Source: a virus (taxonomy: Duplodnaviria; Caudoviricetes). From it: a stretch of DNA of 64,000 nt. The stretch is taken from positions 1-64,000 of the IMG/VR virus record IMGVR_UViG_2940228231_000002; one strand, 5' to 3'. Under the pieces are notes generated by a model. That model saw only the letters and a program-made list of their open reading frames with translations. It had not been told where the DNA came from and did no database searches. Below, piece after piece: positions 32,577 to 63,977 of this stretch (the stretch's first letter is position 1; the number at the start of each line of letters is the position of its first letter). The translations under genes and the position numbers were made by a program.

Positions 32577-33539
32577 CTAACATCGAATACAATCAAAAGT
32601 AGGAACAATTTCTCCATCTACTAATCGATAAAAAGTATTTTCCTTATAAATCTCTCCATCTATATAAACTACTTTCACATCTTTAATCAGACGATAAAAA
32701 TTTTTACCATCTTTACTAATACGTTCTCCTCGCTCTACCAAAACCAAATAACTTCCAATGCTCCCTTTCGCAAGACTGTTATATCCAAGAGCGCAAGCTA
32801 TTGAGTGTTCTCCTTCTACAGAAGCACTGCTAAAATCGCCATGAGAAGCAGCCGCTACTGCTTCCCCTACTGCTTGCGCTGAGGATTCAATACCCATTAC
32901 TTGCGCGGCCGATGACATACCTTGTACATATGCGGCTGAATAATTTCCAGTAGACTGAGCTAGACAGTTCATGCCTTCCACATACACACCTGAAAAAATT
33001 CCACTCGTTTGTCCTGCTGACGAGTTCCCAACTACTTCTGCCGCAGAAAATTCCCCACTTATCTGACCAGCAGATTTATCGCCTATTACTTGAATACCTT
33101 TGCAGTTAAATATAGATTGCCCTGCCGAGCCACGCCCTTGCACTCTTACACTACGTCGACCTAGTGTACCTTGACCACTATCACTGCGCTGATCTGAGTC
33201 AACTCCATAACTAGTTTGATATTTAATTCTAGCTCTATCAAAATGACGCATTATTGTTTGCTTTATAATTCCTTTCACACCAATTTCTTCAAGCAATTTA
33301 ATCTTCTTCGATACTTTCTTAGTATCTCCTTTAGTTTCATCAGATACCTCATCTATTTTTGTCAAAAAATAACGACTGAACGAAGGACTATAATAAATAA
33401 AAGTATTAATAGGGTCTTCACAACTGTGGAAACCTCTATTACAAAGTTCGGTATCCCCTTGCATTTCTTCTTGTTTTCCCAACTTGAATTGATAACCTCG
33501 ACATCTCATATTTATATCTGTTCCTTTATATGTATACAT
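32577..33539 (-). CDS. phage protein with YKG..CRG.Q/GFH.C N-terminal domain and Gly/Ser/Ala beta-helix-like repeats
   Basis: YKGTD.NMRCRGYQ, GFHSCEDP, ~9-residue small-residue repeats; paralog of 35077-35997. Confidence 0.75.
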   Translation of the reverse strand: MYTYKGTDINMRCRGYQFKLGKQEEMQGDTELCNRGFHSCEDPINTFIYYSPSFSRYFLTKIDEVSDETKGDTKKVSKKIKLLEEIGVKGIIKQTIMRHFDRARIKYQTSYGVDSDQRSDSGQGTLGRRSVRVQGRGSAGQSIFNCKGIQVIGDKSAGQISGEFSAAEVVGNSSAGQTSGIFSGVYVEGMNCLAQSTGNYSAAYVQGMSSAAQVMGIESSAQAVGEAVAAASHGDFSSASVEGEHSIACALGYNSLAKGSIGSYLVLVERGERISKDGKNFYRLIKDVKVVYIDGEIYKENTFYRLVDGEIVPTFDCIRC

Positions 33540-33559
33540 TTTATTTCTTCCTCTCTTTC

Positions 33560-33898
33560 TTAAATGCAACCACCACAAGAGCCGCTCCTCCAGTCCTCTT
33601 CTTGAAAAGCTAGAAATATATCTTCCATTTCGCTCTTGTGTGTAGTTATTTTAGACAACCACTCAAAATTCTCCTCTACCCACTCCTGACAATTTAATCC
33701 ATCTACATAATCAGAAAACTGTTCTTGCCAATCAATGAATTCCCATTGAGAATATTCCCCAAATGTATACATTGGACTATTTCTCAAATCCTCTGGAATC
33801 ATTTTTGAAATATCTATTCCATCTTCCTCTAGTGTCCATTCTCCAGCACATAAAGCAGGATAGCACCCAGTCCACTCAGCCACATATTTTTTCTTCAT
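33560..33898 (-). CDS. conserved phage hypothetical protein
   Basis: WTG.YP.LC.GEW...DWR.GSCGGCI. Confidence 0.65.
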   Translation of the reverse strand: MKKKYVAEWTGCYPALCAGEWTLEEDGIDISKMIPEDLRNSPMYTFGEYSQWEFIDWQEQFSDYVDGLNCQEWVEENFEWLSKITTHKSEMEDIFLAFQEEDWRSGSCGGCI

Positions 33899-34678: not shown

Positions 34679-34847
34679 TCTACTAACCTAAAATTTGTGA
34701 GTGTTACATTGAAATTTTATTCTGTGCTGGCGCATGAATAAAATTTTCCATGTAACACTTGAAAAATTCCTCCAGGTCTTCAACTTCGTGAAAATACAGG
34801 TTACACCTATACCGCACTTTATGTATTGTAGTGCTATTCGTTAGTAG
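34679..34847 (-). ncRNA. retron msr/msd-like element B (predicted)
   Basis: Terminal IR CTACTAAC/GTTAGTAG, unpaired G at 34839, two short stem-loops, ~60-nt long hairpin (34700-34759); ends shared with element A. Confidence 0.7.
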
Positions 34848-34865
34848 GTTATTTCCCCGTGTTCT

Positions 34866-35054
34866 TTAATCCGACCCTAAAAGCCAGTCAATGAACACAT
34901 CATTATCTTTACAAAAATATTCTGCTCCGTCTAGTAAACAGTCCTCGCAGTCTAATTTTACACATACTTCTGGCTCTAGTGTGTGTTTATTTATTGCCAA
35001 AGAACTAATACCTATGTCATTTATTTCGTTTCTAAATTTTTCAAGATTTGTCAT
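34866..35054 (-). CDS. small Cys-containing protein
   Basis: MTNLEKF..EI..IGI; paralog of the 25851-26312 N-terminus. Confidence 0.55.
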   Translation of the reverse strand: MTNLEKFRNEINDIGISSLAINKHTLEPEVCVKLDCEDCLLDGAEYFCKDNDVFIDWLLGSD

Positions 35055-35076
35055 TATTCCTCTCCTTTTTTTTATT

Positions 35077-35997
35077 TTATTTGATAGCGGGAACTACTTC
35101 TCCGTCTACTAGTTGATAGAGAGTGTTTTCTTTGTACTTCTCACCATCAATTTGTATTACTTTCACAGTTTTAATTGGGCGGCACTCACCGTCATATTCT
35201 CCACGTTCTGTTAAGACTAAATAATTTCCCAAAGTCCCCTGTGCTGTGCAGTTATATCCAAAAGCACAAGCTATTGAATGCTCTCCCTTTACCGATGCAC
35301 TACTAAAATTTCCACAGGATATGGCTACCACTCTTTTTCCAATCGCCTGTGCTAAAGATTGTTGACCTATTGTTTGTGCTGTGCTACAGTCACCTGTTAC
35401 CTGTGCTACCGATTGTTGACTTATTGTTTGTGACGCCGTGTAATTCCCTATCGCCTGTGCCACCGAAGAGATGCCCACTGATTGAGCCCCTGAACATAAA
35501 CCTATTGCTTTTGCTATTGAAAAAGGAGCCGTTGTCTGTGCAGACGAGAAGGTGCCTGTTGTATGTGCCAGTGAATAGTTTCCAATTTCCTGCGCCGATG
35601 AATAATTGCCTGTGGCATATGCCACTGACGCACTATCGTTCTCCTGTGCCATAAAGCATCGCTCATTAGTATTATTTTTTTCATTAAAATCTGTTTGTTT
35701 GAGACGTAATGATAGTCCAGCCTCTATAATTCCATTTATTCCAATCTCCTTAAGAAATTTTATTTTTTTTGACACTCGTTTTGCCATACGTGTTTCATCA
35801 GAGATATCGTCTGTTTTCGTTTCAAAATATCGACTGTCTGATGGTGGATAATAAAAGAAAACTTCAATGGGGTCTTCGCAACTATGAAAACCTCGGCCAC
35901 AAAGCTTAACATCTCCTTCTATTTCTTCTTGCTTACCTAGCTCGTATTGATAGCCACGACATCTCATATTCATATCTGTCCCTTTATATGTAATCAT
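35077..35997 (-). CDS. paralog of 32577-33539 (repeat-containing phage protein)
   Basis: YKGTDMNMRCRGYQ, GFHSCEDP, AQTIG-type repeats, IDGEKYKENT.Y.LVDGE. Confidence 0.75.
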   Translation of the reverse strand: MITYKGTDMNMRCRGYQYELGKQEEIEGDVKLCGRGFHSCEDPIEVFFYYPPSDSRYFETKTDDISDETRMAKRVSKKIKFLKEIGINGIIEAGLSLRLKQTDFNEKNNTNERCFMAQENDSASVAYATGNYSSAQEIGNYSLAHTTGTFSSAQTTAPFSIAKAIGLCSGAQSVGISSVAQAIGNYTASQTISQQSVAQVTGDCSTAQTIGQQSLAQAIGKRVVAISCGNFSSASVKGEHSIACAFGYNCTAQGTLGNYLVLTERGEYDGECRPIKTVKVIQIDGEKYKENTLYQLVDGEVVPAIK

Positions 35998-36437
35998 TAT
36001 TCTTCTCCTTCTCTCATTTCTTCGTATTCGTTTTTCATCCATTCATCAAAGCACACATAGCACTCTCCACCATTAATACCAATCTCTTCGTCTACATCTT
36101 CTGGTTTAACACCTCTCTGCTCGCACCACTCTTTAACATATTGATTGTATAGTTCACGGCACGCTTTTTTCTTTGCTGCTTCCATCGCTTGTTCCATCAC
36201 ACTCCAGTAAGCTTCAAAATATGAGTCGCTGGTCATGAGCATTGCGACAAATATATTTGCGATTGCTTCCACATCTTTTTCGATGATTTCTACTTCTTGA
36301 TCTATATAATCATCGCTATTTTCTAAATAGATACACATGTCATCTACTATATTAGCACGCTCAACTTTTTCATAAATATATCTTCTCTCCTCTGCTGTTA
36401 GCTGCTCATATAGAGCCTCTTTTGATAATTCTTTCAT
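35997..36437 (-). CDS. hypothetical protein; its RBS is displaced by the IscB element
   Basis: ATG 36437 abuts the element end; C-terminal GECYVCFDEW..NEY. Confidence 0.6.
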   Translation of the reverse strand: MKELSKEALYEQLTAEERRYIYEKVERANIVDDMCIYLENSDDYIDQEVEIIEKDVEAIANIFVAMLMTSDSYFEAYWSVMEQAMEAAKKKACRELYNQYVKEWCEQRGVKPEDVDEEIGINGGECYVCFDEWMKNEYEEMREGEE

Positions 36438-36444
36438 CAAATCA

Positions 36445-37713
36445 TTAGGCTACGGAAACCCCCTGCTTTAGCTGTGGGGAGGAAGTAGCCATTCTCCTTT
36501 CTGTTAATATGGTTTTTCTCTTTTGTAACTGCTTCAGTTTTTTGTAACTGACGCCCTTTGATATGCTTGTACCATCTAATTGTCTAATGTCAAAACTGCC
36601 AGAAGAACGTCTGCCAAAGACAAAGCCCTCTTGCTTGCCGCATTTTACTTGATCAAACAACTGATAGCCAAATACATATTTCGGTGCTTGGTTTCGCTTT
36701 CTGATGCCACCTTTATTTATGGTTGCTTTATGCAGCTGCCGATTATGACGGCGTACACACTTTTGATGAAAGTAATAACCTAGCGGAACGGCCTTTGGAT
36801 TGCCACTGATACACCTTGCGTCCACTGCATGGGTTTTTTCAAGCCCTGCACCAATACGCACATGCTTTGTGATATACCCGAAAGTCATTTCTACGTTTTG
36901 ATACATTTCTTTAAGGTGTTCGTAAAGCGCCCAACGCATAATACCCATGAAGGCTGCATCTTTGTAGGATGCGCCTCTCTTTACTTTTAAGTCTATTTTT
37001 CCTCTGTGATAAGCATTATGACAGGTTTCGCATAAGGTAATGAGGTTTGTTGGCGCATCACCACCAGTCTTACGACTTTCTATGTGATGCACATTCAATA
37101 CAGCATCCTTAGACTTATCCTTACAATGTTGACATACATGATTGTCTCGGAACAGCACGTACTCACGCACATTCCAAAACCCTAGTTGCTCACCTTGTTG
37201 ATATGCTTCTCCTGCGATTAGACTATCTTTTAATTTCTGTGTATCAAAGGATGCCGTTTCTACGATCACCTTTGCTACTGGAAGCAGTTTATGTAGTTCC
37301 TTTATTAGTTTTTCGTGGGATGCAATCTTTTGCTTTATACTTGGCGCTAACCAACCCTTATCTCTTTTTCGATTAGAAAACCTTGCGGCTCTATATCTGG
37401 TCTTTCGATGCCTCCTACCTCTTCGTTGTTCTCTACGGCTTGCAAGCAATCCTACAATATCTGTTCTTAACTGTGTTTCTGATGCATAGAGTTCTTCTTT
37501 TTCAGTGGTTGCTGAAAGTCCAACGACTTTGCTACCAGCATCTACACCTAAGATGACTTCTTGTACGATTGTTGTTGTTTCATAGAGCAACTGGATGGTA
37601 AATGGGCATCGGCTTATTACTTTTGCCTTTTTGTTTTTTAACAGCCTTCTTACCTTGCCTTGCCGTTTGGTTGGCATAAGCGGTTCTCCGTCTTTACTTA
37701 TGATATATACCAT
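36445..37713 (-). CDS. iscB: IscB RNA-guided endonuclease
   Basis: PLMP domain, RuvC-I GVDAG, Arg-rich RRxRR bridge helix, RuvC-II VE, HNH with CxxC pairs, RuvC-III HAVDA. Confidence 0.93.
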   Translation of the reverse strand: MVYIISKDGEPLMPTKRQGKVRRLLKNKKAKVISRCPFTIQLLYETTTIVQEVILGVDAGSKVVGLSATTEKEELYASETQLRTDIVGLLASRREQRRGRRHRKTRYRAARFSNRKRDKGWLAPSIKQKIASHEKLIKELHKLLPVAKVIVETASFDTQKLKDSLIAGEAYQQGEQLGFWNVREYVLFRDNHVCQHCKDKSKDAVLNVHHIESRKTGGDAPTNLITLCETCHNAYHRGKIDLKVKRGASYKDAAFMGIMRWALYEHLKEMYQNVEMTFGYITKHVRIGAGLEKTHAVDARCISGNPKAVPLGYYFHQKCVRRHNRQLHKATINKGGIRKRNQAPKYVFGYQLFDQVKCGKQEGFVFGRRSSGSFDIRQLDGTSISKGVSYKKLKQLQKRKTILTERRMATSSPQLKQGVSVA

Positions 37714-37729
37714 TTCTGCTCCTTTTTGC

Positions 37730-37977
37730 TTGCATACTTCTTTGCTGTAAGCCTCTTGTATGCTAGAGTTTGTTACCCATCGCCAATGTTATGGAAAGGT
37801 TTTCACAAGCAGCACTATCTTTTCCCCATAAAGATTGTTTAACCACTTGCCGCAGAGTCTGAGGCTTGGATTGACACCTCAGAGTGCCTATATATTCTTT
37901 CCTAACGTAGTTTTCACTTTGGCTAGTCAGTAAGGGGACTTTTTCAAGCCCCCTGCTTTAGCTGTGGGGTTACTGAC
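37730..37977 (-). ncRNA. omegaRNA (HEARO) scaffold; guide predicted from the flank 37978-~37997
   Basis: GTCAGTAACCCC...GGGGCTTG start, GACTAGCC, CTACGTT, GTTAAACA, AACATTGGCGATGG segments typical of IscB leaders; 3' boundary approximate. Confidence 0.85.
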
Positions 37978-37982
37978 ACGTG

Positions 37983-38382
37983 TTCTCCTTTCAATTTTTG
38001 TTTTTTGCAATCTATATGATGTTATTAGCTCGATCGGAAGATGGGTGATGGATTTGGTTTTCCCGAAATTTAGGTGGGTTTTTGTATTTGTTTTAATTTC
38101 CGACTTGGGTTTAGCTAAAGTTTTTGATTCGTCAGAGGATATTTATTTTATTTATTTAATTTTCTTAGGTCAGCACCATTCAACTGCATACTCGAGATGA
38201 TTTCTTGATGCCATTTTTCCAGAGGTGTTGATGCGGATTTTAACGGCGTTTTTAGCTCGGGTAGCCTCATCTGTTTCTTCCCCCACGATGTGGTCGTGTT
38301 GAGAACCTCAACACGTTATTCTTTTAGAATAAAATGCATTGCAAAAAAAATACGCACTCTTAAAATGCGTCTACTTCAAAAT
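37983..38382. repeat. 400-bp direct repeat, copy 1
   Basis: Identical by eye to 39733-40132 (offset 1750). Confidence 0.95.
38001..38348 (-). ncRNA. retron msr/msd-like element C, copy 1 (downstream of RT)
   Basis: 11-bp IR TTTTTTGCAAT/ATTGCAAAAAA, G at 38337, stem-loops TTATTCT/AGAATAA and CGTGTTGAG-GTT-CTCAACACG. Confidence 0.7.
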
Positions 38383-38383
38383 A

Positions 38384-39727
38384 TTAATTTATGTTTACAT
38401 TCAAACACTCCTTCATGGTGTCTAATACATTAGCGTTAAACTTCTTGTTGTATTTTTCTATGATTTGCTCACAGCTCTTAGGCTCAACTGATTTAAGATA
38501 TGAGATATTTCCCATCATAACCTGAATATCTTTCACGTCCCAAAAGTTTCCATTTTGTACATCCATCATGAAATTCGTAATCATTGCTTGAATTCTCTTC
38601 TTCTCTTTGTGCCCAATAGTAATGCCATAGTCTTGGTTGTACATAAGGCCCAAAATCCAGTTACTTCCCGCAATAGAGCCATATCTGGTTTTCTTGGTAT
38701 TCAATTTAAACGGTGCCTGCTCCTCTTCTAGCACTGAGTTGATGTACTCAATCACTGAAGAATACTTGAAGCCACGGTGCCCGCCGATGAACAAATCATC
38801 TGCATATCTTGTATAGAGCAGTTTGAAGTTCTGCTCTCCATCATCTTTATCAAATTCCGTCACAGATTTCGCATCAGTCAGTAATTTATTATAGATTTTG
38901 AAGTCTATTGGAATCATCAATATATTAGTCAGAAGCGGTGAGATTGGCGTACCTTGTGGCAATCTCCCATCCAAGAAACACAATCTAAGGCAATTATATA
39001 AAGCCCTCTCGCCTCCGTACATTGAGCAAATTTCACTAAACGGAAATATTTGCTTCATTTGTCTCATTGTGAAATCAATATCTATGCTACCAAAGAAATT
39101 GCTAAAGTCTAATTTCAAAATCCATCTACTTTTATTCTTTTGTAGTTTTCGCACAAGGTCTTGTGTGCATCTGCCAGGAATGTAAGCATATGCTGCTGTA
39201 TGATATGTATTTCCTTTCATAAATTCTTCAAGCATCAGCTTCAATTCAGTCAGTGCTGCTTTTAGTTCTGGATGAGGAGCGTCAATTTGACGCAGTCCAC
39301 TTCCAGACCTCTTAGGTAGGAAAAACGTATAGTAGTTTGGATTATATTTCTTGCCAGTCGATTCTAATATTTCCTTAGTTTTTTCGTTGACTTCTTCTTC
39401 ATCTGATAATCCACAACTAAATTTCGCATCTCGTTGTGCTTTTACTTGATCAGCATAACAGTAGTCATCATCAAATGAAATATCTAGGTTTTTATGCATA
39501 TCATAAAATTTTTCTAGTTGTCTAACCATATCGCTAACCACGTACTCTTTTTTCATTCCAGTCAGCACTTTGCTTGTGTCTTTAGCCACTATTGTTTTGG
39601 TTGAATTAATTTTTACGTTTGTTTTTCTATATTTTCCGATTGAATCCTCATCAATCAATCCGAATAGCACGTCTTCAAAAGACATTGTTTCGGTTCTTTT
39701 TGTTTGTTTTGTAATAATATAAGTCAT
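38384..39727 (-). CDS. retron-like reverse transcriptase (447 aa from MTYII)
   Basis: Y..F..PKRSG.LRQI.AP, AYAY..GR, LKLDFSNFFGSI, LPQGTPISP, YTRYADD, LN.KKT, ILGL; NAxxH and VTG signatures degenerate; ~130-aa N-terminal extension. Confidence 0.9.
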   Translation of the reverse strand: MTYIITKQTKRTETMSFEDVLFGLIDEDSIGKYRKTNVKINSTKTIVAKDTSKVLTGMKKEYVVSDMVRQLEKFYDMHKNLDISFDDDYCYADQVKAQRDAKFSCGLSDEEEVNEKTKEILESTGKKYNPNYYTFFLPKRSGSGLRQIDAPHPELKAALTELKLMLEEFMKGNTYHTAAYAYIPGRCTQDLVRKLQKNKSRWILKLDFSNFFGSIDIDFTMRQMKQIFPFSEICSMYGGERALYNCLRLCFLDGRLPQGTPISPLLTNILMIPIDFKIYNKLLTDAKSVTEFDKDDGEQNFKLLYTRYADDLFIGGHRGFKYSSVIEYINSVLEEEQAPFKLNTKKTRYGSIAGSNWILGLMYNQDYGITIGHKEKKRIQAMITNFMMDVQNGNFWDVKDIQVMMGNISYLKSVEPKSCEQIIEKYNKKFNANVLDTMKECLNVNIN

Positions 39728-39732
39728 TTCTT

Positions 39733-40132
39733 TTCTCCTTTCAATTTTTGTTTTTTGCAATCTATATGATGTTATTAGCTCGATCGGAAGATGGGTGATG
39801 GATTTGGTTTTCCCGAAATTTAGGTGGGTTTTTGTATTTGTTTTAATTTCCGACTTGGGTTTAGCTAAAGTTTTTGATTCGTCAGAGGATATTTATTTTA
39901 TTTATTTAATTTTCTTAGGTCAGCACCATTCAACTGCATACTCGAGATGATTTCTTGATGCCATTTTTCCAGAGGTGTTGATGCGGATTTTAACGGCGTT
40001 TTTAGCTCGGGTAGCCTCATCTGTTTCTTCCCCCACGATGTGGTCGTGTTGAGAACCTCAACACGTTATTCTTTTAGAATAAAATGCATTGCAAAAAAAA
40101 TACGCACTCTTAAAATGCGTCTACTTCAAAAT
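39733..40132. repeat. 400-bp direct repeat, copy 2
   Basis: Runs from the last 23 nt of the ThiF gene to the RT RBS. Confidence 0.95.
39751..40098 (-). ncRNA. retron msr/msd-like element C, copy 2 (upstream of RT)
   Basis: Canonical retron position just 5' of RT; IR 39751-39761/40088-40098, candidate branching G at 40087. Confidence 0.75.
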
Positions 40133-40793
40133 TTCTTGTGTTTACTAAAATCATTTTCTTGAATTCATCGTTTCTGCCTAACACTACATTGATGAAATTA
40201 TCAATTGTGAAATTGCATACTGCCCTCACTGTAGATACAAGTGATAGTGTCGTATTGCATGCTGAAACTGGTGTGTCGGCATCTGCTTCCTCGTCTGTAA
40301 AATTCATAGATTTAAGCAGATTATCTTTTTCTTTATAATCATGCCATCTTGCACCATATGCCTGAGCATCTGTCAATCGAATTCTGTTGTCAAATACAGC
40401 CTTTATATTGACATTGTTAAAATTCGTCTGGCATATTGTTTTTCTGACTGAGATTTTATCTACGGCCATGAAGACATATCCATTGAGCATTTGATTTTCA
40501 TATCGTTCAACGAACTGAATGTCAACATCTGGGTTTATCTCTCGCATAATACCTGCCAGTGCCTCTGTTTTCTTTCGCCCAATATCTTTTTGTCTAAACA
40601 TCTGATTTGAGATATTGTGTGGCTCTACAGTATCAAAGTCATACAGTGTGAACTTCGTCAGTCCAATTCTCACTAAGAGCTCAGCAGTCGAAGACCCGAC
40701 TGCACCACAGCCTATAATATGTATCCTATCCCTGCATTTTTCTGGCTGAAAATATTCGTAAAATTTACTTGTGTCCATTTTTTCCTCCTTCAT
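40110..40793 (-). CDS. ThiF/E1-like ubiquitin-activating enzyme
   Basis: IIGCGAVGS, D.D.VE.HN.SNQ, K, AVD...R, candidate catalytic Cys in PVSAC. Confidence 0.9.
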   Translation of the reverse strand: MKEEKMDTSKFYEYFQPEKCRDRIHIIGCGAVGSSTAELLVRIGLTKFTLYDFDTVEPHNISNQMFRQKDIGRKKTEALAGIMREINPDVDIQFVERYENQMLNGYVFMAVDKISVRKTICQTNFNNVNIKAVFDNRIRLTDAQAYGARWHDYKEKDNLLKSMNFTDEEADADTPVSACNTTLSLVSTVRAVCNFTIDNFINVVLGRNDEFKKMILVNTRNFEVDAF

Positions 40794-41367
40794 TTTTTAC
40801 TTTTGGGTCTACCATTTCCAGATATTCTTCATAAATATCACGTAGCCCACCATCTGATGTGCCAATGTAGATATTTTCACTGTTATATAGTAGCCCGTCT
40901 TCTCTGTCTGCAATCCTAAAAAAGAAATCGAACCTCTTATTTAGAATTATAAAGATGTAGAAACTATCCTCTTGTAGCATTTCTATAGTGTCGTATTGAT
41001 AATCCAAATCAACTCCAGACGGTGATGTTTGCATGTTAACATGGGAATGTCCATATAAACATAGGTTATCAAGCCTCTCATCTTCTTCGAGCGCCATTTT
41101 TTCCAACCACTGCCCATATAGGTTATCAATACATTGCACGGTTACTGGAGACGTTTTGTGCGGATAGAGGAACACATCATCAATCTGATATTCACCCTTC
41201 CCGATCTTTCGCCCACTTCCGTGCCATGCAATTTCGTTTTGATGGAACATTGTCAGGAAAAGCATTTTCGACATTGCTTTTGGGTCAAACAGCACTTTCG
41301 CCTTATCATCTGTTTTTTCAAGCGACGCCACAACAATGCTTTTATCTTTCACATCGTTCTTATTCAT
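40765..41367 (-). CDS. JAB/JAMM metallopeptidase (deubiquitinase-like)
   Basis: E(IAWHG) ... HSHVNM..SPSGVD matches E-HxH-x7-S-x2-D. Confidence 0.88.
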   Translation of the reverse strand: MNKNDVKDKSIVVASLEKTDDKAKVLFDPKAMSKMLFLTMFHQNEIAWHGSGRKIGKGEYQIDDVFLYPHKTSPVTVQCIDNLYGQWLEKMALEEDERLDNLCLYGHSHVNMQTSPSGVDLDYQYDTIEMLQEDSFYIFIILNKRFDFFFRIADREDGLLYNSENIYIGTSDGGLRDIYEEYLEMVDPKVKNEGGKNGHK

Positions 41368-42697
41368 TGCTCTCCTCCTTATAGAAATTCTCGATAATAT
41401 AGCGGCCACTGTGCAGCTCACCCGACTCATCCATTATGCATTCACAAGCCATAATTTCATCGAGGAAACGCATGGCAACTGTGGGGTCGAGCCAATTGAT
41501 ATTCTGCGTTAGCGATATTGTCGCCTGTATTGCACTAATTAAATCGCCGTTTTCCATAGCTTGATTCCAAAGCATTTCAAATCCTCCATTGCATTTATAC
41601 ATAGCTGCATGTGGAGCTGGCAAGCCTTCGTAATCCTCTCTCAACCTATGTTCATCTGATACATTTCTCATATAGCTTTGGACATCAAAAGTGATTGCAA
41701 ATGTAGCACTTCCCATAATTTTATACTTGTAATTAACAAAGATTTCATCTAATAGCCATTTCGCCGCTTTTTTCTTATCATTATGCATACCGCCATATAT
41801 ACATACCCTGTCCAAGTCCTCAGTTGCCTTTTGGAATCCATCTTGGTCAAAATAAACTATAGGAGCGACAACATCATAAAACACCTCTGTTCCCCGTGTT
41901 TGTATGTTTTTTATTAGCTGATTTCCGACAAGAAAATCAATGAGCTCTTTATCTCTTTCATTAGTTCCTGCCTCGTTTTCAATTCCAGATAGTATTAACA
42001 TATCGTAATTATTCGCTTCTATGTTCCTTCTATACTCTTGCATAAATGACTCATTCTCTCTATTGCGCTCGTCTATTCTATTTGCAGCAGTTTTCCTTCT
42101 CTGTTTATTCATAATCTGAAGACCATGTATAATAGCATCTTTTTGAATTTGCACCTCAAGTTTTTCGACATCGAATGTAGAGGCAGCCAAGGCCATCTCG
42201 AATGCCTTAGTGCTATCTGACTTTGCAACTTCTTTTAACCAATTAACTTTTTTCCCAATGGTTTTAACATCAATAAGCCCATTTGCAAGTCTTGGCAATA
42301 ATCCCGCTATTACGTGCACAGTTTTTTTGATTACAAAATCTCCCATAGCTCTATTTTTGCCTTTAATAAGGATAATCTTTGTATTGTCTACTTCGTATAT
42401 ATTCACAACCATTGGAAAACCGCAAGACTTAGTAAGATATTCAGATGTGATTACGTCCTCTTTTCCCATGAGTTCATCTAAACTATCGTTGATAAATGAA
42501 AATATATAATCGTATTTAGTTTCTTGTTCAGGATTTAAAGGATTATAATCTCTACGCATGCACACTGACTTTTCAAGCTTTTCTCCACTGGATAAAACAT
42601 TAAGAACAAGCCCCATAGTGAGCAGATCGTCGCTTTTCACATGTATGTTTTGCATTTCTAATTCTTCTATGATTTTCCTTTTTACCGATCCATTCAT
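41360..42697 (-). CDS. putative E2-like conjugating protein with coiled-coil N-terminal region
   Basis: C-terminal LPAPHAAMYKCNGGF resembles the prokaryotic E2 PH-x5-C-x-G signature; sits between Ubl and JAB/E1. Confidence 0.55.
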   Translation of the reverse strand: MNGSVKRKIIEELEMQNIHVKSDDLLTMGLVLNVLSSGEKLEKSVCMRRDYNPLNPEQETKYDYIFSFINDSLDELMGKEDVITSEYLTKSCGFPMVVNIYEVDNTKIILIKGKNRAMGDFVIKKTVHVIAGLLPRLANGLIDVKTIGKKVNWLKEVAKSDSTKAFEMALAASTFDVEKLEVQIQKDAIIHGLQIMNKQRRKTAANRIDERNRENESFMQEYRRNIEANNYDMLILSGIENEAGTNERDKELIDFLVGNQLIKNIQTRGTEVFYDVVAPIVYFDQDGFQKATEDLDRVCIYGGMHNDKKKAAKWLLDEIFVNYKYKIMGSATFAITFDVQSYMRNVSDEHRLREDYEGLPAPHAAMYKCNGGFEMLWNQAMENGDLISAIQATISLTQNINWLDPTVAMRFLDEIMACECIMDESGELHSGRYIIENFYKEESNE

Positions 42698-42726
42698 TGT
42701 TTTTCTCCTTTCTATGTTTTTTATTA

Positions 42727-42910
42727 TCTACTAACCTAAAATTTGTTTTCCGTGACTGAAGCAGACTGGCGCTATGGGCAAGGAAGGCTTCAGGGATTGA
42801 AAAGCGAATTATCACTGCTGCTCGTTATTGCAGCAGTAATCCGACTCGATGTGATAACACAAGTAACACTTGTACTGCATTTAATTACTTTAATGCCATT
42901 CGTTAGTAGA
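42727..42910 (-). ncRNA. retron msr/msd-like element A (predicted)
   Basis: 9-bp IR TCTACTAAC/GTTAGTAGA, G at 42901, stems GCATT/AATGC and TACAAGT-GTT-ACTTGTG, internal hairpins. Confidence 0.7.
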
Positions 42911-42923
42911 CTCTATGTATTAT

Positions 42924-43169
42924 TTACATAGCACCATTTGCGTTTTTGATCGCAGACAGGATATTGGTTTCTTCTTTATATCCTTCTAATTGATTTAGCG
43001 GAGTCGTCATTTCTGCCTCAGTCAAATATCCACCATTTAAGGTGAACTGATTTCCTACTAAGATTCCACAAAATTCTTCCATTTCTGTTACATCTACGAA
43101 TGTGCTATTCTCATCAATAATTGCTGATTTTCTTGCTCCTGTTGAGTTCATTACGATTAATTTAGTCAT
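42924..43169 (-). CDS. ubiquitin-like (beta-grasp) protein
   Basis: 81 aa, beta-beta-alpha pattern, TLNG..L....L..L, C-terminal KNANG-AM; upstream of E2/JAB/E1. Confidence 0.6.
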   Translation of the reverse strand: MTKLIVMNSTGARKSAIIDENSTFVDVTEMEEFCGILVGNQFTLNGGYLTEAEMTTPLNQLEGYKEETNILSAIKNANGAM

Positions 43170-43244
43170 TTTTATTCTCCTTTTCTCTTCAATAAAATAA
43201 GGCAGCGACTTTTATCACTGCCATCCAATTTTCACTATATCTTT

Positions 43245-43631
43245 TTACAACAAAACACTAACTGATTGCTCAACACTGTCAATTTCTTCTTTGATAACTG
43301 ACAATGCCTGCTCGATGCCCTCTTCAACTGCATTTGCGTTGATCATGACATAAGTGTAGCGTTCTGCAAAATATCGTTTCTTTTCAGCCTCTGTTTCGCC
43401 ACACACTACAACCTTAGTGGCCGCCTTACCATCGCTGGTTGTTTTGCCAAATGCAATTCCATGGCTAAACACACCATTTTCTCCATCACATTTGTACACA
43501 AAATCAACATCGCCGTTTTCGTCATACAATTTTAACACTTCTGGCTTGTACTTTTGAACAGTCTTCAAATCTTCCGTTGTGTAGTCACTTACAATAATTG
43601 CCTCGTTCATCATAATTTTTACTTCTAACAT
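43245..43631 (-). CDS. hypothetical protein upstream of Ubl
   Basis: 128 aa; RBS AAGGAG. Confidence 0.6.
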   Translation of the reverse strand: MLEVKIMMNEAIIVSDYTTEDLKTVQKYKPEVLKLYDENGDVDFVYKCDGENGVFSHGIAFGKTTSDGKAATKVVVCGETEAEKKRYFAERYTYVMINANAVEEGIEQALSVIKEEIDSVEQSVSVLL

Positions 43632-56818: not shown

Positions 56819-59800
56819 ATGTTTGCACCTAAACTATACTCTGTTTACAAAATATCTTTGCGGGATATTGTGGCGGCTGACTATAGGCTGAGTGGTACTA
56901 ACGACGAGCTGAGAAAATATCGAGTGCGTCAGCAAGATGGTGGCATATTACGGCAAATACGCCTCATCACTGGAGACGACGGAAAGTTCAATCCATATAT
57001 TGTGTTCGTCATGTTAGATAAAAAAGACAAAGAGATTATTGCCCAAATAATCAGGAACGGCTTTTATATCAACGAGACCCACTTCACATTTAGTGAGAGG
57101 TCGGCATCTATGACAAGGAGCGGAATGTTAAGTTTTGTAGATACGACAATTATTGACGAACTTAATGAGCGTGTGAATATGGACATTGCAGATACTAAAA
57201 CGGTACTCAGCAAGAAATATGCATACCGAGGATTGTTCCTAAGCTCCAGTCATATGCTTGAGGGATTCTTCCCCAAGATGATTGTAGTGCCAGACTACTT
57301 CCCCACTATAAAAGACCAGCACATCAAATATGCTTATGATGATACGCTGCACTTTGTAGATAAAGAAGGTCGGGAACGCACGTGGACACAAAAGAATATC
57401 GCCGAGGGAATTAGGGATATTGAAATAAATGCTTTTGACGGGAGCGGGATTTGTCACCCTGCTATCTCAAGACAGATAGAGCAATTATTGGGAAGCCCTA
57501 CCCCTGTCAGCAGTTATATTATCCGCGCACCTTACATTAAGGGCCTTGTACATGAAATTGATTATGAGTCGTTTTTCTTAGAGCGAGGCATCACACAAAT
57601 CAAAGATATATGGGGCATATATCACGATTTCTCGGAGCCAATGATTATTATGACTGAGGGCATGTATAAGGGGCTTGGATATTTCAAGACCTACGGCGAT
57701 GAGCGAGATTGGGAGCTTTATTGGGAGAAATTTCATAAGTATGAGCATTGCATAGGCATTACAAAGTGGAACTTCACCGCCGATGAAGAGCCTGTGTATA
57801 CCAGAGCAAATTATCAGATACTGCAAGATTTGAAATTGTCTTATGAGGACTTTAGGAGCTTGTCGGACTACAGTATTGAATGGGCGGATAAAATTATCCA
57901 CGGAGATCCATTTTATACATACTCCTTCCTCGGAATGTACGCCGATAGTCATAAGGCAAAGAATGACTACATCGCTGCTATTCTTAAAGACCCAGAGATG
58001 TTAAAGGAGCAGAGCGTGAAAAAATACTTGCTGAACTCACTGACAAAATATCGCAATGATATGAAGTGTGGCAAGTTATGGCTTAAGTCAACATTTAAGT
58101 TCTTGGCTCCAGATTTAATTATGCTTATGGAATGGATTGGCGGGCTTGACCCTGTAGGCTCTTTGGAGAGTGACGAATTTTATTCTCATAGTAAAGACGG
58201 GGCTTATGAGGGAGAGTTCTTAATTGAACGGAACCCGCACATCTGCCATAGTGAACATACTATATTGACTGGTGTTCAAAATGAAGTAATCAACACATAT
58301 TGTTCTCATCTTGATAACGTGTGTATGATCAACTGTAAAAGTATTGTTCCTCAAAAAATAAACGGGGCCGATTACCCCTTAAAAAGTCCACCCTTGCAGG
58401 AATGCAAGGTGTGCAACGGTGTGAACTGCTTATCGGCAGGTGTGGTGGAAGCACATTGTATTGAGCAGGAAATGGCTCATTAATTCCGCTGCTAACTGGG
58501 GAGGTATGAATGTCGTGTTCATAATAATCCAGTGCTACACTTTAAGCAAATAAGCTTAAAGAAAGTCTAGAGACTATGGGTGATGAGTGTAGCCCAGTAC
58601 CTGCCCTATTGATACGGGTTTGGGAAGCGTACCGCCACCAGAACGGTGGAAGATATAGTCCCTATATATCAATATAGGTTTGATGGAGACCTGATTCTCC
58701 TGATTGATAATGAAATGATGATGCGAGGTGTTGACAGAGATGCTCCAGTGGTTATGGACATCGAAGACAAAATTACAGCCCTCGCTGAAGAGGATACAAT
58801 AGATAACCGAGTTAACCTAGTGTTACGCACAATAAACTCCTTAATTGGAGAAACGAGTAAATATTTGCTCCTTTGTATGGCGACATATAATAGCAAACCT
58901 CTTTAATTGCTGGAAACCCCTTAGAGCGTTTCTAACTACAACATAATCAGAAATGATAAGTGTGAATGTGTAAAAATAGAAACGATTGGGCAATCAGCAG
59001 CCAAGCTCCTTAAACGGAAAAGGTTCAACGACTATCGCATGTGCGAGTACATTCAAGCGAATGGAAACGGGAGGCATCTCCATGAGATGAAGATATAGTC
59101 TGTACATCTACGGAAACGTAGAGAGATGATATTAGCGACATCATCGTAACAAAGTAGAATTGTGCAACAGGTTATCACAATAAGCAACCACGAGACGAGG
59201 AAACAAGAAAGAAATACGAGTCTTATGTGGATTTATTAAGCATAATTAACGGAAAGGTGATAAATGCGTAGGCTGTCACCCTATGTGGCGACACATAGAA
59301 AACAAGTTGGTGAACTCGTAAATGCGAGGTGTGCATCTTACAGTTGGAATCGCAGGAAATGGCGATTTGAAGATGTGCTAACAGGGAAAAAGATTATCTC
59401 AATCCTGTGCCAAGCCTGAGCAGAGATGCTCTTGAAGGTCAAGAGACTAAGATACACGGGCTTTTTAAGTCTATGAAATCTGTACATGGTGAGTGAAATT
59501 CTCTCCGTGGAAGCGCCAACCTCTCACACTTGTGAGATGAAGATATAGTCCAAATGAGACTACGCCAAAACTGGAGTGTTGTACAACATTCCAAAACACA
59601 TTGCAAAATATAGTAAGCCCCTGCCCTACTTCATGAAATATGCGTCTGAGTATTATAAGGGATTGAATACTTTTTCAAACGCAAACAGCAACATGAATAG
59701 ACTTTGTAAAGATATTGAGAAATGGAGCAAGAAACAGAGATACACTGGGCTAGATAGAAACTTCGACTACAAAATAATGATAGACGATTCTATTGATATA

Positions 59801-63162: not shown

Positions 63163-63239
63163 GCTGGTATAGTTCAGTTAGGTAGAATACTTGTTTTGTA
63201 CTCAAGATGTCTGAGGTTCAAATCCTCATGCCAGCTCCA
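63163..63239 (+). tRNA. tRNA-Thr(TGT)
   Basis: GCTGGTA/TGCCAGC acceptor, anticodon loop TT-TGT-AC, GGTTCAAATCC, TCCA end. Confidence 0.85.
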
Positions 63240-63376: not shown

Positions 63377-63977
63377 AAGTACCTATAAAAATATATACTA
63401 AAGTAACTCAGTGCAAACATCACTAGTTAGGTGGTGCTGAGGCATACTGGTTGAGTCAGTTATGTAAAAGACGGATACGTCTTTTCTGTAGCTGCGCGTC
63501 TTTAAGCGATTTCTGACGTGTAGGCAAAACCGAAACTCAAGGTATGGCACTGCGTTTACTGCAATCAAACGCACGAGATGAATGGGCAACGCAATAGAAA
63601 GAGTGGTTAAAAGCCACTCCGAATCCAAGTTAGGTTTTAGTTGGTGACTGTAGCAAACCTTGGAAATACCAACAAGTTGTTTCCCAGTGAAAGAGAGAAA
63701 TCTCTGTATAACATTCGTCGAAGTACGAGTAGGGTGGGGATTTTATAATATTGCTTTATCAAACGAATATAAGCACAAAATAAAATTTTCTGAATTAATC
63801 CTGAAAGTTGAGGGTAAGCAACCCCTCCAAAGTTTAGCTCTTTGATGGGCGTGGTAAAGAAGTCACTAGGGTAGCTCCCTTAGGCTCAGACTTTATCTCC
63901 TTTGTGGCAGAATATGGTTGAAAGTAAGCAACAGCAGGCTGAAAAGACACTTTCTGTATATATTTTTATAGGTACTT
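63377..63977 (+). ncRNA. large structured RNA candidate (ROOL/GOLLD-like)
   Basis: 601 nt closed by a perfect 22-bp IR (63377-63398/63956-63977), many internal hairpins, inside a tRNA cluster. Confidence 0.6.

Follow-up and report, generated by a model that had tools for sequence, protein, structure and literature searches.

Organization of the RT locus

The window analysed here, a 64,000-nt stretch of prophage DNA (positions 1 to 64,000 of IMGVR_UViG_2940228231_000002), carries on its minus strand a gene (38384..39727) for a reverse transcriptase (RT) of 447 aa counted from the ATG, featuring a YADD motif and an N-terminal extension of ~125 aa. Upstream of the RT lies a conserved operon on the same strand (40110..43169), composed of an 81-aa Ubl-like gene (42924-43169), the RNA element A described below, a gene for a 445-aa protein (41360-42697), a JAB-like gene (40765-41430; an Atlas lead at 0.96) and a ThiF/E1-like gene (40110-40793; ThiF at 6.9e-23); an assignment to Prok-E2_D within the operon is a weak lead (0.83). 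The synteny of this operon is kept in 7 close loci, and an E1 homologue immediately precedes the RT in 5/5 diverse phages from IMG/VR. The genes downstream of the RT vary among relatives, and the ORF following the RT is not homologous between the window and the related locus L003.

Four intergenic elements, namely A, B and two copies of C, are encoded on the RT strand, as an earlier note on this DNA had described and as was verified part by part. They share one plan: the terminal segments a1 and a2 pair into a closing helix, a1 is followed by an invariant G and by two covarying hairpins (SL1 and SL2), and then come a conserved tail and a variable core, with U-A-G preceding a2. Each of the four lies in an operon leader, closely followed by a ribosome-binding site and a gene, and in A, B and C the ribosome-binding site is not occluded by a2. 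In some elements, a1 includes the U-run of a terminator-like hairpin that comes directly before, an arrangement that counts against the retron-like explanation developed below. Element lengths in the wider family range from 168 to 411 nt, with no conserved small ORF or open frame inside the elements and with cores that are not significantly stop-free on either strand.

Element A (42727..42910, minus strand), a short type with hairpin cargo, is located between the Ubl-like gene and the 445-aa gene. It starts with a1 (42902-42910, TCTACTAAC) and the invariant G (42901), followed by SL1 (42877-42896), SL2 with a GTT loop (42858-42874), two cargo hairpins (~42747-42848), TAG (UAG in the RNA, 42736-42738) and a2 (42727-42735). 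Its covariance-model scores are 38.9 bits (model R1) and 31.2 bits (model R2), and orthologues occupy the same position in the loci L003, L005, L007, L008, L009, L010 and L011. Element B (34680..34847, minus strand), also of the short type, precedes an N6/N4 DNA methylase gene and comprises a1 (34840-34847), G (34839), SL1 (34814-34834), SL2 with a GTA loop (34793-34813), a long cargo hairpin (34700-34759), TAG (UAG, 34688-34690) and a2 (34680-34687), scoring 48.2 bits with R1 and 37.8 bits with R2.

Element C is of the long type, with an A/C-rich and weakly structured cargo. Copy 1 (39751..40098, minus strand; 66.2 bits with R1) fills the gap separating the RT from the E1 (ThiF) gene, a gap also filled by an element in relatives, and consists of a1 (40088-40098, TTTTTTGCAAT), G (40087), SL1 (40066-40082), SL2 with a GTT loop (40045-40065), the cargo, TAG (UAG, 39762-39764) and a2 (39751-39761). 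Copy 2 (38001..38348, minus strand), identical to copy 1 with all parts 1750 nt lower, is located directly downstream of the RT, a common layout in relatives. Both copies are embedded in an exact 400-bp direct repeat on the minus strand (37983..38382 and 39733..40132; 400/400 identical), each unit of which encloses element C together with a terminator-like hairpin and a ribosome-binding site. Copy 2 provides the next gene with its ribosome-binding site, and that gene is now interrupted by an IscB element.

A structured RNA family with a variable core

A, B and both C copies belong to one structured-RNA family. As noticed earlier, A and B are identical over 20 nt at their 3' ends and over 12 nt at their 5' ends, and A and C have CACATCG in common; the latter is the form in this phage (CACAUCG) of a handle tail whose consensus in the family is GUAACAAnUUGAU. 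Minimum free energy folding recovered the closing helix and both hairpins in A, B and C, with z-scores of -3.7, -6.1 and -1.65, respectively. The low structure of long-type cargos such as that of C, unlike the classical msd hairpin, counts against a retron-like explanation.

Covariation of the stems, claimed at first from the window alone, was borne out in homologues. Across 27 homologous elements, SL1 and SL2 were paired in 94.7% of cells, versus 35-43% when the partner column was slid, with 130 double-sided changes, and the observed values were reached by 0 of 500 shuffles, so that the pairing is far beyond chance. Both hairpins contain many G-U pairs when read on one strand but not on the other (two base pairs, for instance, are G-U in 11 and 10 of 27 elements), which points to the RT-sense strand as the folding strand.

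The a1/a2 helix, which is not part of the covariance model, was scored with swap controls for comparison. At least 8 contiguous Watson-Crick pairs were formed in 78% of 114 R1 matches and 77% of 137 R2 matches, versus 1.7-1.9% in the swap controls, and 51 distinct a1 8-mers were represented. The G after a1 was present in 27/27 and 150/150 aligned elements, and the base preceding a2 was G in 111 of 112 cases. Inverted repeats that close the RNA and a conserved candidate priming G at the 3' end of a1, both features of retron ncRNAs, are hence found in this family; in ~20% of model matches the helix falls short of 7 clean bp, which counts against the retron-like explanation.

The cores evolve in a different manner from the rest. 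Between near-identical phages with RT genes 97% identical, identity fell to 59% in the cargo but stayed at ~93-99% in the handle and flanks. The core keeps a similar length with a turnover much faster than that of neighbouring genes, and the substitutions between related cargos show no adenine bias. Such very fast turnover fits an arms-race role.

Distribution and linkage to the RT

A covariance model of the two hairpins only gave 4 matches in the 2.17-Mb genome, which were A, B and the two copies of C, all within 5 kb of the RT. In RT-anchored loci, R1 found 119 matches, every one on the RT strand, and after rebuilding, the model (R2) recovered 269 copies from 88 loci, again with no exception to the RT strand. 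In the closest relatives, the RT-anchored stretches (~15-21 kb each) contain 1-7 elements, with four in the window and 2-5 in many other loci, and some relatives possess tandem arrays downstream of the RT. In whole phage records (77-137 kb), 3-4 copies each were confined to ~16 kb around the RT, and the tight clustering persists even where the RTs are only 36-57% identical. Handle similarity is somewhat higher within a phage than between phages (0.58 versus 0.47).

Elements regularly found in phages lacking this RT had been named beforehand as a result that would speak against the proposal. Two RT-independent motif scans of IMG/VR uncovered 11 further element-bearing contigs, 10 of which encode the RT, the sole exception being a 39%-complete fragment. 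Most of the evidence for co-occurrence as a whole stems from phages related to one another rather than from independent samples, which counts against the retron-like explanation. Neither the RNA element nor the RT was present in 150 genomes of the same bacterial family. The family is restricted to RT-bearing phages, and the combination of this RT with element copies recurs across hundreds of large gut phages. Several elements for a single RT, first suspected from this one locus, are the rule across the phage RT clade.

Affiliation of the RT

The RT matched Pfam RVT_1 at 1.5e-20 and the PADLOC retron model RT_II-A at 5.7e-47, and its best PDB match was the Ec83 retron RT (8e-13). The NCBIfam model retron_St85_RT gave 170.9 bits, below its curated cut-off of 235, and retron HMMs scored far above the Drt2 and Drt3 models, with only 34 bits for Drt2. 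In total, 3084 homologues were found, and matches at 1e-10 or better occurred in only 19 of 50,697 GenBank phage records. The YADD motif is invariant across 30 members of the RT clade.

NAxxH and VTG are retron-specific RT motifs. In the alignment with Ec83, DNAKIH stands opposite DLVRKL and VTG opposite ILG, and the clade consensus reads D-x-V-x-K-H and x-L-G with the G invariant, so that the motifs in this RT are related to those of retrons but degenerate. This degeneracy and the NCBIfam score under the cut-off both weigh against the retron-like explanation. As far as sequence comparison goes, the enzyme appears to be retron-like, closest to retron RTs in three libraries (PADLOC, NCBIfam and PDB), in agreement with its initial designation.

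Proposed mechanism and alternative explanations

A, B and C are best interpreted as an undescribed family of retron-like ncRNAs serving one phage-encoded retron-type RT, an explanation to which a probability of roughly 65% is assigned. One RT probably copies several different RNAs into DNA, a multi-template use undescribed for retrons. Each element would be transcribed within a phage early polycistronic RNA, followed by pairing of a1 with a2, and the RT would recognise the shared handle, made up of SL1, SL2 (GU(A/U) loop) and the tail, and would make single-stranded DNA from the enclosed variable core. Among sequencing runs, this DNA occurs only in one stored as contigs, probably the source assembly, and in no RNA run, a blank result only. 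Synthesis is predicted to start beside the invariant G preceding a2, with CTA as the first bases or one base further in, and priming may proceed, by analogy with retrons, from the 2'-OH of the invariant G after a1. The cDNA products of the one RT, acting in trans, would be hairpin-forming from A and B, and long and T/G-rich from C.

As to function, a role in counter-defence, as decoys, or in controlling either the downstream operons or the neighbouring Ubl/E1/JAB system is a guess, as are the decoy and regulator roles proposed in the earlier note, whose interpretation as a whole is partly supported. It is conceivable, albeit doubtful, that this is a retron-derived multi-template system used offensively, in which fast-evolving cargos would give rise to a changing panel of branched ssDNAs acting with the adjacent and invariably linked Ubl/E1/JAB conjugation operon. 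If so, host DNA-sensing defences might, for example, meet these ssDNAs as decoys or sponges, or the conjugation system might use them as nucleic-acid partners or be regulated by them, and such offensive use by a phage would invert the usual role of retrons in bacterial defence.

The RT might instead copy the RNAs in a non-retron manner, with unbranched synthesis that starts on a 3'-OH, a protein or some other primer and covers only part of the core, as in UG27, the a1/a2 helix and the G serving only for recognition. The degenerate NAxxH and VTG motifs and the tandem arrays downstream of the RT in some relatives are compatible with this, as is the finding that arrays of UG27 phage RTs yield short free cDNA hairpins from the central stem. 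It is nevertheless unlikely, as the RT finds its best counterparts among HMMs and PDB structures in retron RTs rather than class 2 UG RTs, the UG27 RNA motif is absent, and an invariant G exactly ending a covarying closing helix is the layout of retrons.

A further explanation regards the elements as cis-acting leaders of phage early operons, governing processing, stability, antitermination or translation and unrelated to reverse transcription, which would travel with the RT through a shared early region. It accounts for the placement of all copies immediately 5' of a ribosome-binding site and a gene, for the terminator-like hairpins preceding several of them, and for their occurrence in mutually related phages. 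It does not readily account for clustering around RTs so divergent from one another, and a core that keeps its length yet turns over faster than its neighbours would be odd for a leader. Together with the exposed ribosome-binding sites and the closing helix, invariant G and conserved handle, which form the layout of an RT template RNA, these observations render a purely leader function quite unlikely.

Far less probable is that the elements act as DNA, whether as recombination or cassette-exchange boundaries like attC, as origins, or as miniature inverted-repeat transposons (MITEs), although terminal inverted repeats do flank a variable core, the elements sit between gene blocks that differ among relatives, and the cargo looks swapped between near-identical phages. 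Frequent G-U pairs on one strand only and the co-orientation of 269/269 copies with transcription and the RT argue for RNA. Moreover, neither a linked integrase or transposase nor target-site duplications were seen, the elements do not match the attC core consensus, and inverted repeats that vary between copies beside a conserved 5' structural module are not the pattern of MITEs. The notion of a mobile RT cassette with the two C copies as its LTR-like ends, suggested by the exact repeat bracketing the RT gene, is scarcely credible, since the elements flanking the RT in relatives differ from one another in sequence, so that the flanking layout is ancestral and only the identity of the C copies recent (by duplication or gene conversion), and since copy 2 supplies a ribosome-binding site to the next, IscB-interrupted gene.

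Comparison with known systems

Diversity-generating retroelements of phages likewise combine an RT with a nearby repeated sequence; this candidate was rejected because the C copies are 400/400 identical and intergenic, with no variable repeat in a target gene and no adenine bias. A group II intron was rejected as well, with no Rfam intron match at E up to 10 and 72.6 bits against the group II RT model (cut-off 300). In DRT2 (UG2), an ncRNA is copied by rolling-circle reverse transcription. The resemblance lies in an RT beside a structured ncRNA that folds its two ends together; the poor Drt2 score of this RT and the cores that are not significantly stop-free set the two apart.

Retrons consist of an msr-msd ncRNA and an RT, with Ec86 as the textbook case, and usually function in bacterial defence. 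The St85/Ec83/Ec78 group is closest to this RT by sequence, and the elements resemble retron ncRNAs in the a1/a2 helix, the invariant G immediately 3' of a1, the short handle hairpins, the enclosed template region and the placement of an RNA upstream of the RT in the same orientation. Whereas a retron pairs one ncRNA and an effector with its RT as a defence unit in bacterial defence islands, several different RNAs per RT, dispersed or arrayed, are carried here by large phages, with the conserved Ubl, JAB-like and E1 operon in place of a classical effector. Degenerate motifs together with the 125-aa N-terminal extension of the RT, and many long and unstructured cargos, are further differences. 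In the type VI retron Retron-Vpa2, a hybrid RNA places the RT template in an mRNA leader, and cDNA synthesis alters the expression of a downstream or embedded ORF (bioRxiv 10.1101/2025.10.22.683967). Each element here also lies in an operon leader, but with no conserved small ORF or open frame inside it, no sequestration of ribosome-binding sites by a2, multiple elements and a phage carrier.

A conceptual precedent is UG27 of gut phages, in which ncRNA-array units of phage RTs were each experimentally shown to template cDNA (10.64898/2026.09.22.753630, Minerva preprint, September 2026), and which is counted in favour of the multi-template explanation. The remark in the earlier note that no comparable system was known is no longer fully accurate, given these variable ncRNA arrays templating cDNA hairpins; their RT appears to be of another group, and their RNA is a different one. 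Both systems feature a phage-borne RT of 380-450 aa with several ncRNA units, conserved in structure and diverse in sequence, that are gained, lost or altered between close relatives. UG27 is a class 2 UG/Abi RT with YSDD that needs two partner proteins without known domains, and its ncRNA units of 135-167 nt contain a pseudoknot and the motifs UUYA and AUC-N7-UANAG (Mestre et al. 2022, PMC9226505; 10.64898/2026.09.22.753630). The UG27 unit architecture was not recovered here, the 3' motif AUC-N7-UANAG matching 1 of 93 elements, and counterparts of the partner proteins sORF and bORF next to the RT were rejected, as the ORF after the RT is not conserved. In contrast to the published description of UG27, the present RT has YADD and its best matches among retron HMMs, its units of 168-411 nt are built from an a1/a2 helix, a G and two hairpins, and its conserved neighbours are E1, JAB-like and Ubl-like genes upstream of the RT. 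Judged by these sequence features, the present system departs from UG27 in its RT motif, its RNA motifs, the size of its units and its partner genes.

Elements and gene order

The phages described here carry a retron-like reverse transcriptase (RT) together with several template-like RNAs, whose variable cores change much faster than the surrounding genes. Because the window sits inside a contig (428 kb) of a bacterial genome of 2.17 Mb, the phage-like region is a prophage. Its relatives in IMG/VR are phage contigs of 60-148 kb, some of them classed as proviruses. A near-identity DNA search of GenBank phages gave no match. Every gene between 30 and 48 kb is encoded on the minus strand, along which the order is an 81-aa Ubl-like gene, element A (42727-42910), a 445-aa protein, a JAB-like protein, a ThiF/E1-like protein, the first copy of element C (39751-40098), the RT (38384-39727), a second identical C (38001-38348), IscB with its HEARO omega RNA, a 147-aa ORF, a DUF7666 protein, a 62-aa ORF, element B (34680-34847) and a DNA methylase.

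Several other features were recorded in the window. The IscB gene (36445-37713, minus), with RRXRR and HNH domains, and its HEARO omega RNA (37768-37977, minus, 141 bits) form a unit (36438-37977, minus) inserted between the ribosome-binding site of the second C copy and the ATG of the 147-aa ORF, and the omega RNA scaffold opens with 24 nt that are repeated at the opposite end of the IscB element (36456-36479 versus 37946-37969). In parallel, a TnpB (OrfB_IS605) gene lies just 3' of the RT in the relative L010 (L010:11669-12793). Two DUF7666 paralogues (32577-33578 and 35077-36042, minus) share a 223-nt stretch with 75% identity (33334-33556 versus 35792-36014), and the plus strand bears a group I intron (58849-59123), a tRNA (63163-63236) and a ROOL RNA (63383-63968, 299 bits).

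The reverse transcriptase

The RT matches RVT_1 in Pfam, and its best hits are retron RT_II-A in PADLOC (5.7e-47), the Ec83 retron RT in PDB (8e-13) and retron_St85_RT in NCBIfam (170.9 bits, short of the curated 235-bit cut-off). YADD is invariant throughout the clade, and the two signature motifs of retron RTs are degenerate. The protein lacks a maturase, endonuclease or RNase H tail; at its N-terminus it has an extension of about 125 aa, which is absent from a sister group of about 380-aa RTs. The single RT protein found nothing as a locus query in viral and genome collections, so that RT-anchored loci were collected with an alignment of RT homologues as the query. The RT is represented by 3084 homologues or protein clusters and by 289 IMG/VR contigs, with mostly gut Clostridia as hosts, judged from the titles of RT-bearing MAGs. 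By these numbers, large gut phages of a widespread group carry the retron-like RT as a stable component.

A conserved RNA family

The element parts described in the earlier note, namely the closing helix a1/a2, an invariant G after a1, the hairpins SL1 and SL2 with a tail (together the handle), the variable core (the cargo) and a UAG before a2, were all present at their positions in A, B and both C copies, and energy folding returned the closing helix and both small hairpins of each. None of A, B and C matched an Rfam family, even with E allowed up to 10, and promoter and terminator scans gave no excess over shuffled controls.

Seven contigs bearing the closest RT homologues (45-57% identity) were taken for comparison. 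They keep the gene order of the window and, at the A position, at the C position (except in L011, which lacks this gap) and after the RT, have non-coding gaps of 215-540 nt. These gaps house elements of the same anatomy and different sequences, 1-6 of which were spotted by eye or with a simple inverted-repeat script per 15-21-kb stretch. Across 27 elements, 94.7% of cells in the two hairpins are paired with 130 double-sided compensatory changes, whereas slid controls paired only 35-43% of cells and no shuffle attained the observed values.

A first covariance model (R1) was built on the two hairpins and their flanks. It returned only the four known copies from the whole 2.17-Mb genome, six further copies from the relatives, and 119 copies in 88 RT-anchored loci, where the rebuilt model R2 found 269 copies at E <= 0.01. 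In these loci, all R1 and R2 matches are on the strand of the RT, a bias which serves as a built-in control because false positives are expected on both strands. The closing helix provides an independent test of the family, as it was left out of the model: in 77-78% of distinct matches, the bases immediately before the invariant G can pair with a site 150-400 nt downstream over at least 8 contiguous Watson-Crick pairs, versus 1.7-1.9% when the a1 of one element was tried on another. The a1 8-mers comprise 51 different sequences, demonstrating that the pairing is maintained by compensatory change. Together, the model scan proposed earlier and the alignments show the elements to be a conserved RNA family with covarying stems.

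Turnover of the cargo

The cargo of short elements (A, B and orthologues at the A position) folds into stable hairpins, and long elements such as C are A/C-rich and U-poor, with 11-21% U versus 26% for the loci overall. Within element C, a good ribosome-binding site precedes an ORF of 40 aa (39898-40020, minus, with a duplicate 1750 nt lower), which is conserved in no relative. Coding of a small protein by the cargo was rejected, as 93 elements share no conserved ORF or peptide; so was a DRT2-like endless frame, since stop counts are near those of shuffled sequences on both strands and the cargos are not significantly stop-free.

Between L074 (11216) and L078 (11217), two stretches of relatives, the RT genes are 97% identical, the handle is 93% identical and the flanks are nearly identical in alignment, whereas the cargo is only 59% identical with its length unchanged. 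Other pairs (e.g., L043 and L038) behave alike, with nearly unalignable cargos next to RT genes of 93-97% identity and nearly identical handle, a1/a2 and flanks; orthologous cargos keep their length between close phages despite their divergence. The substitutions show no adenine bias, which rules out DGR-type mutagenesis. Judged from these alignments, the turnover would fit either recombinational replacement at conserved borders or diversifying selection, and it argues against the cargo being a mere spacer.

The sole cargo match to the host genome is an identical stretch of 19 nt in C (39916-39934 and 38166-38184; BLAST E 0.002), which recurs at G000:C1:133817-133835 (L132:4818-4836), where an ORF of 102 aa ends in the tail-fibre region of the prophage. 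The peptide around the identity is similar as well (QLNGADL versus LLNGADL). The match may have arisen by chance, may be a relic, or may reflect a cargo directed at a phage gene.

Candidate templates for several cDNAs

We favour, at a probability of about 0.65, the reading that the RT uses the elements as templates for several different cDNAs. If so, retron-style priming from the G after a1 would be somewhat more probable than not. This G is found in 150 of 150 aligned matches; the base preceding a2 is G in 111 of 112 cases, and before that G stand A in 91% and U in 79%. Copying in an unbranched mode, like that of the UG27 group of phage RTs, is quite improbable; tandem arrays of 2-6 units directly 3' of the RT in some relatives (L066:10909-14545, L093:10990-11724, L085:11402-11747) do resemble the UG27 arrays in layout.

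That the elements are leader RNAs independent of the RT appears slightly less probable still.

As to the link between the elements and the RT, whole phage records carry 3-4 copies per genome within roughly 16 kb around the RT, usually in the gap between E1 and RT and directly after the RT. To avoid circularity, two handle-only sequence motifs were scanned over IMG/VR, with contigs already known from the RT search set aside. Another RT-independent motif, from the L003 lineage, had no matches there. The two handle scans yielded 11 new contigs with true elements by covariance model. Of these, 10 encode the RT; the remaining one is a fragment, 39% complete, and has its elements close to one end. 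In the first of the two handle scans, 9 new contigs without a model match also lacked the RT, as expected of chance matches. A further 150 genomes from this bacterial family contained neither the RNA nor the RT. Elements occurring regularly in phages without this RT, which the earlier note held would speak against its proposal, were thus not encountered in these searches.

Action at the DNA level, as attC-like sites or MITEs, is unlikely and was rejected, frequent G-U pairs in the hairpins identifying the RT-sense strand as the folding strand; the reading of the C copies as LTRs, which do flank the RT and, as had been noted, occur twice, both inside an exact 400-bp repeat, is likewise unlikely and was rejected.

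To return to the templating reading, the conserved handle and defined cargo borders make the cDNA hypothesis directly testable. The Ubl-like gene, the 445-aa protein, the JAB-like protein and the E1 (ThiF) protein form a conserved ubiquitin-like conjugation operon directly upstream of the RT (40110-43631), found in the same position in L003-L011 and five IMG/VR records, and the linkage persists across RTs merely 36-57% identical. In several relatives, N-G-A and a further 1-3 residues close the small Ubl-like protein. A putative role in phage-host conflict is suggested by the rapid change of the cargo, by the constant linkage to this operon and by the phage setting.

Comparison with known systems

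As known so far, retrons defend bacteria against phages and combine a single RT with a single template RNA. A literature search found neither a description of a retron with several natural template RNAs nor an account of the linkage between RT and E1. The initial statement that no such system was known nevertheless needs qualifying, as phage RT arrays of the UG27 group are a close conceptual precedent. A 2022 catalogue (PMC9226505) covers the UG27 RTs of gut phages, and their variable arrays consist of ncRNA units that are each copied into a short cDNA hairpin (September 2026 preprint, 10.64898/2026.09.22.753630).

The UG27 RT belongs to the class 2 UG/Abi group and has the active-site motif YSDD, in contrast to the YADD and the best matches to retron HMMs here. 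Its units of 135-167 nt, compared with about 170-410 nt here, carry the RNA motifs UUYA and AUC-N7-UANAG, the 3' one of which is matched by 1 of 93 elements. The UG27 partner genes are two conserved proteins without known domains, whereas the conserved neighbours here are Ubl-like, JAB-like and E1 genes, and the ORF after the RT was rejected as a partner, not being conserved. UG27 and the present system differ in all features compared, the RTs being set apart by published descriptions rather than by sequences, and the two RT groups may be distantly related. Should the cDNAs prove real, they would show retron chemistry put by phages to uses of their own, and the system would provide a natural scaffold for multiplexed ssDNA production as well as a second, independent case of one RT with many templates, after UG27.
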